A DNA stretch of 31,985 nucleotides from an uncultured Lachnospiraceae bacterium (GCA_948762045.1 CAQBPW010000043.1:1-31985), one strand, 5' to 3'. Counted from the stretch's first letter, positions 3,847-19,712 are shown. Notes: generated by a model not told the origin, from the sequence alone. Made by a program: numbers and translations.

Positions 3847-3897
3847 AATCAAAGGAAATTCGGAATCCGCTCCGCTACTTCCTTGATAGGTTAAAAA
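3847..3897 (+). repeat. Family-2 repeat, short ('empty-site') form, inside thiM leader
   Basis: aatcaaaggaaattcggaatccgctccgctacttccttgataggttaaaa; matches ends of long copies at 6381 and 30002 but lacks their internal hairpin block. Confidence 0.7.
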
Positions 3898-4182: not shown

Positions 4183-4195
4183 ACCGTTCTTCCGC

Positions 4196-4290
4196 AAATG
4201 ATGTCCCTACGTTGGCATTATCCAAATCAGGTTTTAAGGGTAAAAGCCTCACATGCTTACTCTCAGCCTATTCTAATAAGCTCCCCATAT
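4196..4290 (-). promoter_or_regulatory. TPP (THI-box) riboswitch aptamer controlling thiMEDC
   Basis: minus strand GGGGAGC...AGGCTGAGAG...ACCCTTAAAACCTGATTTGGATAATGCCAACGTAGGGA matches the TPP riboswitch consensus (CUGAGA box; ACCUGAUCUGGAUAAUGCCAGCGUAGGGA). Confidence 0.9.
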
Positions 4291-4296
4291 ATTTCT

Positions 4297-4330
4297 ATTA
4301 TAACCTCTTTTTAAAAAAACACAATCCCCT
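4297..4330 (-). promoter_or_regulatory. Sigma-A type promoter of the thi operon
   Basis: minus strand TTGTGT-16-TATAAT about 7 nt upstream of the riboswitch 5' end. Confidence 0.5.
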
Positions 4331-4365
4331 TTTTCCAACAAAATCCTTTAACCCCTCCCAACACC

Positions 4366-4535
4366 ATACCTCATTTGAACCTCTATTTTTTACTGAAATT
4401 ATTCGAACCAAGTCCAATCAAATCCAACACCATACCTCATTTGAACTCCTATCTTTTACTGAAATTGGTCCAACCAAGTCCAATCAAATCCAACATCGTA
4501 CCTCATTTGAGCCTCTATCTTTTACTCTATCGGCA
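4366..4535. repeat. Tandem direct repeat, about 65-66 bp unit x about 2.6
   Basis: caacaccatacctcatttgaacctctat(t)ttttactgaaatt..tc.aaccaagtccaatcaaatc repeated head-to-tail; this is what produces the repetitive spurious ORF 4212..4541. Confidence 0.85.
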
Positions 4536-4552
4536 GGATAAATCAGCCAGAA

Positions 4553-4793
4553 CAAAGAAGCAATTTCTTGCTGACGTGACTTCGGAGAAAAGTTAGAAAG
4601 TCTTATGCTTTTGTCGATCCACTAGGATTTTTTGCCATTCCCGAATGGCAAAAAAAGGGGTGTGTTTAGCCCGCTGCACGGGCGAATTGCACCCCGGTCC
4701 GTCCGGCTGGATGCATCAAAATTCAAAAGCGTTAGACTTTCTTACTTTTCGGAGAGCGGAACGTCAGCAAGAAATTGCTTCTTTGTTCTAGCG
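4553..4793 (+). repeat. Family-1 structured palindromic repeat, copy 1b
   Basis: about 70-bp self-complementary arms (cagccagaacaaagaagcaatttcttgctgacgtgacttcgg... / ...ccgaaaagtaagaaagtctaacgcttttg rc) around a conserved 110-bp core with tttttgccattcccgaatggcaaaaaa and gcccgctgcacgggc hairpins. Confidence 0.85.
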
Positions 4794-4828
4794 TCCCCCC
4801 ACCCCCATCCAATCATGAAAAAATCCCC

Positions 4829-6289
4829 CTACCCCTGAGTCCGAACCTCATCCAAAAGCCCCATTTTCAACTCATAATAATCCGGTGTCATATCCAAATA
4901 GTGATTATGCGGATTCTCCAACCGCTGCTCCTCCTCCCAAATCTCATTCTCCAACTGCTTATTTACATACTCCGCAATTTCCTTTAAACTTTCCTCTGGA
5001 TAAACACAAACCCCATTTAAAAACACCGGCACCTGCAGCACCTTCCCCGTACAACGTTCAAAAAATCGATTCTTCCAAGGCTTAATCGGATCTACATACC
5101 GCACAGGCTTAGTAAAATCAATTTCTTCTCCCTTCTTAGCAATCATATCCGCCACAGCCTTCCCGCTCTCATCAAAAATCCGATACACCTCCTTAATCCC
5201 AGGATTGGTAATCTTTTCCACATTCTCCGATACCTTAATCCGCGGCTCAAATCTCCCATTTTCCTCTACAGCAGAAATCTTATAAACCGCACCAAACACC
5301 GGATCAGACTTTGAAGTAATCAGCCGCTCTCCTACCCCAAAACTATCAATTTTTGCCCCCTGATTCAGCAAAGAAGTAATCGTATACTCGTCCAAACTAT
5401 TAGAAGCGACAATCTTACAATCTGACAACCCGGCAGCGTCCAATAGCTTCCTTGCCTTCTTCGAAAGATAAGCCAAATCTCCACTGTCAATCCGCACTCC
5501 TTTTAACCGTTTTCCAAGTGGCTCTAGCACTTCCTTTGCCACACGAATCGCATTAGGAATCCCGCTTTTAATCACATCATAAGTATCGATTAATAAAACC
5601 GTATTATCTGGATAACATTCTGCATATTTTTTAAATGCAGTAAATTCATCCCGGTAAAACATCACCCAGCTATGAGCCATTGTCCCGCTTACCGGAATCT
5701 GAAACATCTGCCCGGCAAGCACGGTAGCAGTCGAACCCACCCCGCCAATGTAAGCCGCTCTCGCCCCATACACAGCCGCATCCATATTGTGTGCCCGTCT
5801 GGCTCCAAAATCCGAAACTCCTCTTCCCTGTGCCGTCTTTACAATCCGCTTTGTCTTTGTTGCAATCAAAGACTGATGGTTAATCTGAAGCAAAATCGCC
5901 GTCTCAATCAACTGTGCATCAATCAAAGGTGCAATCACCGTAAGAATCGGTTCATTTGGATACATAATTGTTCCTTCTCGAAACGCATAAATATCTCCAG
6001 TAAACTTAAAATCTCCTAAATACTTTAAAAAGTCCTCTTCAAAAATCTGCTGTTCCCTTAAATAAGCAATATCTTCCTCCGAAAAATGCAGTTCCTCAAT
6101 ATATTCAATAATCTGCTGCAGCCCAGCAAAAATCGAATACCCCGCCTGATCGGGATTCCGCCGATAAAATACATCAAACGCCACCCGAGCATCCCTATTC
6201 TCGTTATGAAAATAACCATTGCTCATTGTCATCTCATAAAAATCCATTACCATTGATAAATTTCGTTCTCTACTCTGTTTAATACCCAT
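4829..6289 (-). CDS. pncB: Nicotinate phosphoribosyltransferase (start trimmed to MGIKQ with GGAGAGG RBS)
   Basis: NAPRTase family pattern (GTMAHSWV, RIDSGDLAYLSKKARKLLD, ~490 aa). Confidence 0.85.
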   Translation of the reverse strand: MGIKQSRERNLSMVMDFYEMTMSNGYFHNENRDARVAFDVFYRRNPDQAGYSIFAGLQQIIEYIEELHFSEEDIAYLREQQIFEEDFLKYLGDFKFTGDIYAFREGTIMYPNEPILTVIAPLIDAQLIETAILLQINHQSLIATKTKRIVKTAQGRGVSDFGARRAHNMDAAVYGARAAYIGGVGSTATVLAGQMFQIPVSGTMAHSWVMFYRDEFTAFKKYAECYPDNTVLLIDTYDVIKSGIPNAIRVAKEVLEPLGKRLKGVRIDSGDLAYLSKKARKLLDAAGLSDCKIVASNSLDEYTITSLLNQGAKIDSFGVGERLITSKSDPVFGAVYKISAVEENGRFEPRIKVSENVEKITNPGIKEVYRIFDESGKAVADMIAKKGEEIDFTKPVRYVDPIKPWKNRFFERCTGKVLQVPVFLNGVCVYPEESLKEIAEYVNKQLENEIWEEEQRLENPHNHYLDMTPDYYELKMGLLDEVRTQG

Positions 6290-6380
6290 AATTCCTCTCC
6301 TCGTTAAAATAAAATAAATCATGTTTTACCTAGTTTACATCATAATCCTAAAAAAGTATAGCAAAACTTGCATTTTTGAG

Positions 6381-6540
6381 TCAAATCGGATATTCGCAAT
6401 CCGCTTTGCTACTTGCTCATAACCTCATAGCTGCTATCGCAGCTTTTCAGTGGGAGTCTGCACTCCCACTGAAACAAGGAAGTCCCCCACTTTCGCCTTG
6501 GCGGCTTAGAAGCGGGGGACTTCCTTGATGAGGTTAAAAA
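6381..6540 (+). repeat. Family-2 repeat, long form with nested hairpins
   Basis: tcaaatcggatattcgcaatccgctttgctacttgctcataacctcat, then internal hairpins (agctgctatcgcagct; tttcagtgggagtctgcactcccactgaaa; caaggaagtccccc...gggggacttccttg), then atgaggttaaaa; first 50 nt identical to 31936-31985. Confidence 0.8.
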
Positions 6541-6596
6541 ATTATCAATTTTATGTTGCACCCCTATCTCAATCATAAAAAATACCCCAAAATAAA

Positions 6597-19318: not shown

Positions 19319-19566
19319 CAGCTGGAGTTTGGAAGCCCTTTCTCTATGCAGTGACTTCGGAGAAAAGTTAGAAAGTCTTATGCCTCTGTCGATCTCCTAG
19401 GATTTTTGCCATCTTCTGATGGCAAAAAAGGGGTGTGTTTAGCCCGCTGCACGGGCGAATTGCACCCCGGTCCGTCCGGTTGGATATATTTTCATTCAGA
19501 GGCATTAGACTTTCTTACTTTTCGGAGAGCGGAACAGCATAGAGAAAGGGCTTCCAAACTCCAGCG
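19319..19566 (+). repeat. Family-1 structured palindromic repeat, copy 1e
   Basis: arms ccagctggagtttggaagccctttctctatgcagtgacttcgg... / ...gcatagagaaagggcttccaaactccagcg. Internal hairpin has a compensatory pair change (gccatc-ttct-gatggc vs gccatt-ctcg-aatggc). Confidence 0.85.
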
Positions 19567-19712
19567 TCCTCTACACCATCCCCCAGCTTTTCCATCCTAA
19601 TATCCACACATCATCCCCCAACTTTCCCATCTCAATATTCACACCATCCCCCCAACTTTCCCATCTCAGTATCCACACCATTCCCATTCCCCTCAACCTT
19701 CACTTTTTTCTA

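Follow-up and report, generated by a model that had tools for sequence, protein, structure and literature searches.

A stretch of 31,985 nucleotides from an uncultured Lachnospiraceae bacterium (GCA_948762045.1, CAQBPW010000043.1:1-31985), referred to here as the window, carries a dispersed repeat in which a nearly constant core is enclosed by two arms. The outer parts of the arms differ from copy to copy, and within each copy they are reverse complements of each other. What, then, keeps two long arms paired while their sequence changes? The original prediction, made from the sequence alone, considered three answers: that a long stem is under strong selection, that some mechanism holds the two arms identical, or that the element inserts into palindromes that were already present.

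Five copies of a structured repeat

Reading the sequence at 4400-4950, together with a repeat scan of the window, confirmed the predicted five copies with a near-identical core. Their limits moved slightly, as we set the boundaries by the conserved termini CAGCYRGAG...CTCYRGCGTCC. The right-end motif YCYRGCGTCC occurs at exactly those five places in the window, where 0.24 occurrences would be expected by chance. The four copies on the + strand belong to a long class and the inverted copy to a short class:

Copy 1, 1-136, + strand: long class, truncated at the window edge; 47 nt past the stop codon of thiC
Focal copy, 4544-4796, + strand: long class, complete; 5' terminus CAGCCAGA, 3' terminus TCTAGCGTCC
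Copy 9182, 9182-9431, + strand: long class; 57 nt past the stop codon of the FtsA-like gene
Copy 15086, 15086-15326, - strand (inverted): short class, with 22-bp outer arms; upstream of the zf-HC2/polA operon and codirectional with it
Copy 19319, 19319-19569, + strand: long class; after the peptidase M32 gene

All long ORFs of the window lie on the - strand, its GC skew is about -0.35, and it contains one tRNA-Leu and one TPP riboswitch. In these respects it resembles the chromosome of a Firmicute, and the homologues of its proteins carry Lachnospiraceae names. The near-perfect complementarity claimed for the two arms of each copy holds, with one or two non-Watson-Crick positions per window copy in the outer arm. 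The focal copy folds with -135 kcal/mol, compared with -69 +/- 5 for shuffled sequences (z = -13.9), and its reverse strand folds almost equally stably. The parts of the focal copy are as follows:

Left outer arm, 4549-4576, + strand: 28 nt, outer part of stem P1, outside the Rfam model; pairs with 4762-4789 with one non-Watson-Crick position
Right outer arm, 4762-4789, + strand: 28 nt
RF01731 match, 4580-4757, + strand: 66.4 bits, model positions 1-168; inner arms and two-hairpin core
UAGGAU motif, 4623-4628, + strand: near-invariant, unpaired in the consensus structure, in the junction before hairpin 1
Hairpin 1, 4628-4656, + strand: U-run, GCCAUUC...GAAUGGC, A-run; loop without AYGGAY
Hairpin 2, 4657-4695, + strand: GGGGUGUG...GCCCG CUGCA CGGGC...UUGCACCCC; invariant
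Invariant GGUCCGUCCGG, then a YUGGAU motif, 4696-4712, + strand: mostly unpaired
Right flank, 4797-4828, + strand: C-rich and G-poor, typical of the long class

Hairpin 2 contains an invariant tandem U·G/G·U that is standard on the + strand only; read on the - strand, the same segment is a G+C-rich hairpin followed by a U run. On the gene strand, the flank 4797-4828 presents runs of G between the stop codon at 4829 and the element.

Relationship to the TwoAYGGAY RNA family

The inner arms and the core match the Rfam family RF01731 (TwoAYGGAY), whose gathering score is 43 bits. The matches came from scans of small regions with laxer filters, in which three of the four complete window copies reached this score, each over model positions 1-168 (66.4 bits at 4580-4757, 68.2 at 15120-15295 and 63.7 at 9218-9392); a small-region scan of copy 19319 yielded no RF01731 match. 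A gathering scan of the whole window reported only the TPP riboswitch and the tRNA and missed every copy. The Rfam filters are therefore inconsistent for RF01731, as three copies lie about 20 bits over the gathering score and were still missed by the whole-window scan.

The variable arms lie just outside the model and extend its stem P1 outward. What the original prediction described as variable arms are the outer 22-28 bp of a large P1 that had already been noted: TwoAYGGAY was described in 2010 with a P1 stem that is "often very large", and in the portion of its alignment considered here the genome of Psychromonas ingrahamii has several copies, whose P1 stems differ in sequence (Weinberg et al. 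2010, PMC2864571). Eight sequence words from our element are missing from that portion of the alignment, a comparison that words broken by gaps would escape. A 2025 paper calls the family "relatively unexplored", and a bioRxiv manuscript (10.64898/2026.09.22.753630) also mentions it, in its abstract among other places.

A large covarying P1 is evident in the repeat as well. Together with its extension it comprises 53-57 pairs with 98.4-98.6% of the cells paired, and 29 to 36 of the pairs have changes on both sides. The motif AYGGAY, after which the family is named, is found in neither terminal loop of the 84 copies analysed. Their hairpin 1 loops read UCUCGA, UCCCGA or CUUCUGA and their hairpin 2 loops CUGCA or CUGUA, and both terminal loops align to local-end states of the RF01731 model. 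The element is real and highly structured, of RNA type, and a relative of the orphan motif TwoAYGGAY in Rfam. The family and its large P1 were known; the loops without AYGGAY, the extended P1, the very high copy number and the two context classes are new.

The match to a described RNA family, with the large P1 noted in 2010, had gone unnoticed in the original prediction. There is a practical trap here, as a gathering scan misses the family and a reader without tools could take a known RNA for a new palindromic mobile element.

Copy number, length classes and genomic context

Searching representative genomes with a 27-nt core pattern, we found at least 117 loci with at least 140 matches in the mouse-gut Lachnospiraceae MAG CAJUEI01. 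Many of these loci end at contig ends. The 84 complete copies analysed, those of the window included, were aligned as a long class of 41 and a short class of 43. The two classes have the following characteristics:

Long-class arm: 27-28 bp, consensus AGAGYGGGGAAnnnATTCCTTTCCGCTG
Short-class arm: 21-22 bp, consensus AGAGTGCATYAGGRGNACGCTG
Long-class right flank: C-rich and G-poor (43% C, 7% G)
Short-class right flank: T-rich (41% T)

The outer arms had been considered specific to each copy. They do vary, but they are not unrelated, since they fall into these two length classes, each with a recognisable consensus and compensated substitutions. Likewise, the outermost parts diverge as predicted, but beyond the arms conservation returns: the terminal motifs are conserved, and so are 30-55 nt of class-specific flank.

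The classes occupy different positions relative to genes. Among the copies listed, 42 of 68 in the long class lie past the end of an opposite-strand gene, and 42 of 51 in the short class lie upstream of a same-strand gene, usually by 100-260 nt. The median distance to the gene ends of the first kind is 47 nt, both classes taken together. With respect to the adjacent gene, long-class copies are antisense. A long-class copy on the - strand and a short-class copy on the + strand commonly form a pair, with a conserved spacer of 140-400 nt. None of the 145 listed copies is within an ORF, and no orthologous genes were found between the window and the CAJUEI01 loci.

The flanks hold features of their own. 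Long-class copies such as L020, L032 and L039 have a conserved CCTCTAYGGATRMATGAATCAAC module in the left flank, some 45 nt before P1, with an AYGGAY hexamer on the + strand; it is tandemly duplicated in L024 and L069 and weak at window 4500-4543. In the right flanks of this class (window 4797-4828; L001-L117), the gene strand reads several G-runs of 4-6. Judged by composition, the C-rich right flank could load Rho on one strand or form a G-quadruplex on the other.

Covariation and the strand that folds

RNAalifold predicted the same structure for both classes, consisting of the P1 extension, the inner stem, and a junction with hairpins 1 and 2. The support for this structure, with column shuffles and displaced partners as controls, was as follows:

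Standard-pair cells: long class 98.4%, short class 98.6%
Standard-pair cells in column shuffles: long class 88.5%, short class 89.6%
Standard-pair cells with the partner slid by 1-3 columns: long class 43-51%, short class 34-48%
Cells changed on both sides: long class 326, compared with 73 in shuffles; short class 293, compared with 75 in shuffles

None of 500 shuffles of either class attained the observed values. In P1, single columns hold four or five standard pair types, and hairpin 1 is exchanged between copies as a block (GCCAUUC/GAAUGGC for GGGCAC/GUGCCC). Pair counts over the 84 copies thus gave a covariation signal far above the shuffles, and strong selection for the long stem, the first of the explanations considered in the original prediction, is upheld by massive and strand-specific covariation. 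A coding reading is disfavoured by this RNA-type covariation and by indels of 1 nt between copies.

The strand is indicated by the imperfect pairs. The predicted pairs are standard in 98.4-98.7% of cases on the + strand and in 92.7-93.6% on the - strand. In the outer arms of the 84 copies, 2213 pairs are Watson-Crick; of the rest, 74 are G·U on the + strand, 39 are A·C and 26 are of other kinds. When the polymorphic outermost position is left out, 61 G·U pairs stand against 26 A·C pairs, and the excess is present in each length class (33 versus 16 and 28 versus 10). The two classes are mostly oriented in opposite ways relative to the neighbouring genes and presumably also relative to replication. 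As G·U pairs are in excess on the + strand in both of these opposed classes, a single strand, the Rfam strand, is the selected one. These data show that the Rfam + strand is the folded, selected molecule. By itself, the strand asymmetry fits RNA and single-stranded DNA alike.

Presence and absence in relatives

Syntenic contigs of relatives were reached through homologues of the FtsA-like protein. By the identities of PolA, CoaE and MVP, L145 and L146 are nearer the window than L142, and L143 is more distant; gene identities place L142 outside the group formed by the window and L145. No element was found in the 13.8 kb of L145. The gap between the FtsA-like and MVP genes of L145 (7791-7810) is 18 nt and contains no hairpin, while the corresponding gap in the window (9093-9488) is 396 nt and contains the element and an extra ordinary terminator hairpin. 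The L145 gaps between M32 and QueH and after tRNA-Leu have ordinary, unrelated terminator-like hairpins. The two L145 genes, 18 nt apart, are spaced as in an operon; gain of the element would have divided such a unit.

L142 has three full elements (1575-1945, 5370-5700, 5810-6130), whose core is 70-80% identical to that of the window copies. The apex of their hairpin 2 is enlarged by 70-85 nt of poorly conserved sequence, and these expanded elements gave no match to RF01731. The site between the PBP and NUDIX genes is occupied by a full element in L142; in the window it is 77 nt long and without a palindrome. The two empty sites (FtsA-like/MVP in L145 and PBP/NUDIX in the window) also lack 60-100 nt of flank. 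The unit of gain or loss is the whole element, with its arms and flanks included. Either L145 may have lost its copies, or parallel gains at the same three sites may have occurred in the window and L142. Comparison of filled with empty sites revealed no target-site duplication, but the two are too divergent for junctions to be defined.

This patchy occupancy among close relatives is one of the reasons to consider a non-autonomous DNA element of the MITE or REPIN type, whose hairpin would be recognised in single-stranded DNA by an HUH/Y1 transposase acting in trans (IS200/IS605 or RAYT), so that the pairing constraint would act at transposition and not on an RNA. We regard this as unlikely, although it accommodates several observations. 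The element reaches at least 140 copies in one MAG, its short termini CAGCCAGAG/CTCTGGC are conserved, and strand-specific tolerance of G·T would suit a single-stranded DNA intermediate as well as an RNA. However, there is no sign of recent transposition, as near-identical copies are missing (outside the outer arms, copies are on average 86% and at most 95% identical), and no target-site duplication is visible where elements were gained or lost. When 710 ORFs from the 117 loci were compared all against all, no recurrent transposase-like ORF emerged near the copies, only paralogue families of low identity (28-55%), and the element had no match in plasmid and phage collections. Furthermore, the element matches an RNA family model, and a need for the hairpin only would leave the invariant unpaired motifs of the core unexplained.

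How the arms change

The lack of near-identical copies indicates that the copies are old. Between copies, the outer arms are on average only 61-63% identical; the conserved part is CAGCYRGAG/CTCYRGC, and the other 15-20 bp vary. Arm identity is weakly correlated with identity in the rest of the element (r = 0.2-0.3), and the unpaired linkers are as variable as the arms. Types of hairpin 1 and types of inner stem occur in mixed combinations across the classes, which points to recombination between copies.

Ordinary terminal inverted repeats can be rejected as a description of the ends, as the arms covary in the 84 copies instead of staying conserved; the original prediction was right to set the element apart from them.

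Five strains of the window species contain every copy with few differences. Their comparison revealed three changes that affect a single arm, two of which give a G·U pair on the + strand and one on the - strand. In copy 9182, one pair changed from C:G to A:T with compensation between strains whose flanking protein is identical. Right beside this pair, about 9 of some 35 nt differ, which makes it likely that the allele is a recombined, older haplotype. The strain differences have the pattern of ordinary mutation under a pairing constraint and not that of one arm being copied onto the other.

The second explanation offered in the original prediction, a mechanism that keeps the arms identical, can be judged against the same data. 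In this explanation a DNA-level process within the hairpin, such as template switching at quasi-palindromes or mismatch correction in an extruded hairpin, would maintain complementarity with little selection. The near-perfect pairing across 22-28 bp, the frequent transversion-type double changes (for example GC to CG) and the compensated transversion pair in copy 9182 would all be expected from it, but the last of these lies beside the probably recombined stretch. Moreover, only 14 of the 84 outer stems are perfect; the non-Watson-Crick positions are 81% transition-type and asymmetric between strands, as the G·U and A·C counts show; and in the inner stem a conserved U·U, several G·U pairs and bulges are kept in all copies and never erased. 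We therefore consider such a process improbable, and the copy-specific arms are ordinary compensatory evolution of P1 rather than the product of an exotic DNA mechanism.

Decay of elements to short hairpins

All that L142 has at the FtsA-like/MVP site is a short hairpin, GGACGC CAGATTTCGGAACGGTTGGGTACTGCTG TTCCG AAATCTGG CTGT. It consists of the whole 28-nt arm up to the junction CTG/TTCCG and, after that, the final 8 nt of the opposite arm. A full element contains two GTTCCG direct repeats, one of which opens the inner arm while the other lies inside the far outer arm. In a reconstruction, deletion between these repeats recreated the L142 hairpin letter for letter, and the relic retains both a hairpin and a U-rich tract. 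A hairpin at the M32/QueH site of L142 also has the TTCCG junction, although it is a less clear case, and L142 1961-1995 is a relic of the short class. Elements thus decay to short hairpins through internal deletion, as the exact product in L142 shows. Short forms are rare, with none in the window and one clear example (L036) in about 700 kb of MAG loci.

The exact deletion product and the hairpin-free gap of L145 together imply that hairpins at "empty" sites are relics and not targets. Palindromes matching the arms, sought at the empty orthologous sites of L145, L142 and the window (PBP/NUDIX), appeared only as such relic hairpins. It is thus highly improbable that the core inserted into loops of palindromes already present, for example terminator hairpins, and that the outer arms are host sequence: the short hairpins of L142 with the same terminal motifs and the U-rich tract that follows the long-class stem on the gene strand would suit it, but the first of these hairpins keeps the family junction ...CTGCTG/TTCCG and is an exact deletion product, the empty site of L145, which is nearer the window, has no hairpin, that of the window has no palindrome, short forms are rare, and the arms share a family consensus and have conserved outer flanks. 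Targeting of palindromes is accordingly rejected on the L145 empty site, the L142 reconstruction and the rarity of short forms.

Neighbouring repeats

Other repeated features occur close to the element. A second dispersed structured repeat of about 170-190 nt is located at window 6366-6554, with pieces at about 29990-30170, 31934-31985, 3849-3897 and 15371-15419. On the - strand it folds into a three-way junction (-95.7 kcal/mol, z = -10.9). It has at least 47 BLAST hits in the MAG loci, with identity up to 94%, and no match in Rfam, and it sometimes adjoins the left flank of the TwoAYGGAY-like copies. Three units of a 66-nt tandem repeat (window 4358-4555) directly adjoin the left flank of the copy at 4544-4796; strain L137 has two extra units, so the unit number varies within the species. 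To the right of the copy at 19319-19569, C-rich tandem units of about 37-39 nt (window 19570-19712) differ between strains as well, L137 being about 37 nt shorter and L138 39 nt longer. Upstream of thiM-thiE-thiD-thiC, the TPP riboswitch (window 4187-4297, - strand, 67.7 bits) is downstream, on the gene strand, of both the focal copy and the 66-nt repeats.

Discussion

We believe that the repeat is probably a lineage-specific, high-copy variant of TwoAYGGAY, in which a two-hairpin core is closed by a very long P1. P1 stays paired while its sequence drifts. Point mutations, mostly transitions, strike one arm, and many persist as G·U pairs until they are compensated later. The core and several unpaired motifs (UAGGAU, GUCCGUCCGG) are kept nearly invariant. 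The contrast between the homogeneity of the core and the divergence of the arms most likely reflects constraint on the core together with recombination between copies that does not reach the short variable arms. Some points count against the RNA-family explanation. The loops are without AYGGAY, and copy 19319 and the L142 variants fall outside RF01731. The frequent swaps of GC to CG would be easier with DNA-level copying of arms, and a compensated change of C:G to A:T occurred between very close strains.

What the copies do can be suggested from where they lie and how they are built. They are confined to gene boundaries and are presumably functional modules at the RNA level. Of the 12 nt immediately before P1 in the long class, 54% are A, hence U when the gene strand is read; the U-rich tract of the short class is its T-rich right flank. 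A U tract directly after a closed P1 in the direction of local transcription would be the anatomy of a terminator, and the element may thus act as an intrinsic-terminator or insulator cassette. A simple terminator scan did not flag the element. The invariant unpaired motifs UAGGAU, GUCCGUCCGG and YUGGAU and the AYGGAY motif of the left flank suggest a sequence-specific partner, and the conserved single-stranded GGAU motifs would be candidate binding sites for a protein. The GGA motifs of the UAGGAU/YUGGAU type resemble CsrA sites, so a protein-sponge RNA of the Csr/Rsm type, with several GGA motifs in loops or single strands, would be a candidate parallel.

A putative signal for transcription of the + strand is limited to part of the short class. 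An extended -10-like TGnNAnAAT stands just before the first base of P1 in about half of the short-class copies when judged by eye, and in 12 of 43 by a stricter pattern. It is absent from the short-class copy of the window and from all long-class copies, and no promoter-like motif was seen in the left flanks of 41 long-class copies.

A more ambitious and rather doubtful proposal is that the element is a self-contained mobile cassette of a small RNA and a terminator at Lachnospiraceae gene boundaries, which as a whole would form a genome-wide GGAU sponge or scaffold for an RNA-binding protein. If so, there would be one copy per about 6-20 kb and more than 100 copies, each with two or three single-stranded GGAU sites; the long P1 would double as the terminator of the neighbouring gene; and the element would be a functional TwoAYGGAY variant whose protein-binding motifs have shifted from the loops to the junctions.

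Whatever its function, the variant is of interest because TwoAYGGAY has been an orphan since 2010. It provides rich comparative material, with hundreds of paralogous copies in two context classes, and the deletion relics and the presence or absence of copies in close relatives make structure, strand and genomic role directly testable. A role as terminator or insulator, if confirmed, would mean that a structured RNA repeat reshapes operon boundaries in gut Firmicutes.

Comparison with known systems

Several known elements share features with the repeat. The REP/REPIN and ERIC-type repeats of proteobacteria are dispersed, strictly intergenic imperfect palindromes that fold into long hairpins and, at gene ends, are often co-transcribed. 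They occur in shorter and longer variants with conserved pairing and are simple hairpins of about 30-130 nt, and REPINs depend on a RAYT transposase gene. To our knowledge, none of these repeats has a conserved multi-hairpin core. The present element resembles them in its dispersed intergenic location, its long imperfect hairpin and its conserved pairing, but contains a multi-hairpin core as well. MITEs such as Correia, RUP and BOX are non-coding, multi-copy elements near gene ends that may supply terminators or promoters; their terminal repeats are conserved between copies and accompanied by target-site duplications. In our element, by contrast, conservation is limited to 7-9 terminal bp, the remainder of each arm covaries, and there are no recent copies. 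The likeness to intrinsic terminators lies in a stem followed by a U-rich tract along local transcription, 7-90 nt after stop codons. However, the "loop" is here a conserved structured core of 190 nt, and the sequence-specific features are on the opposite strand.

The closest likeness is to TwoAYGGAY itself. The architecture is the same, in that an AAG linker connects two hairpins and a very long P1 that covaries closes them; the scores are 64-68 bits over the full model; there are several copies per genome without a fixed gene association; and the taxa overlap, including Clostridia and gut organisms. The present variant differs in that its GGAU-containing motifs lie not in the loops but in junctions that are unpaired and in the long-class left flank, in that P1 is 22-28 bp longer than the model, and in that at least 140 copies in one MAG are divided into two context-specific classes. 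In L142, related variants with a hairpin 2 expansion of 70-85 nt escape the model.
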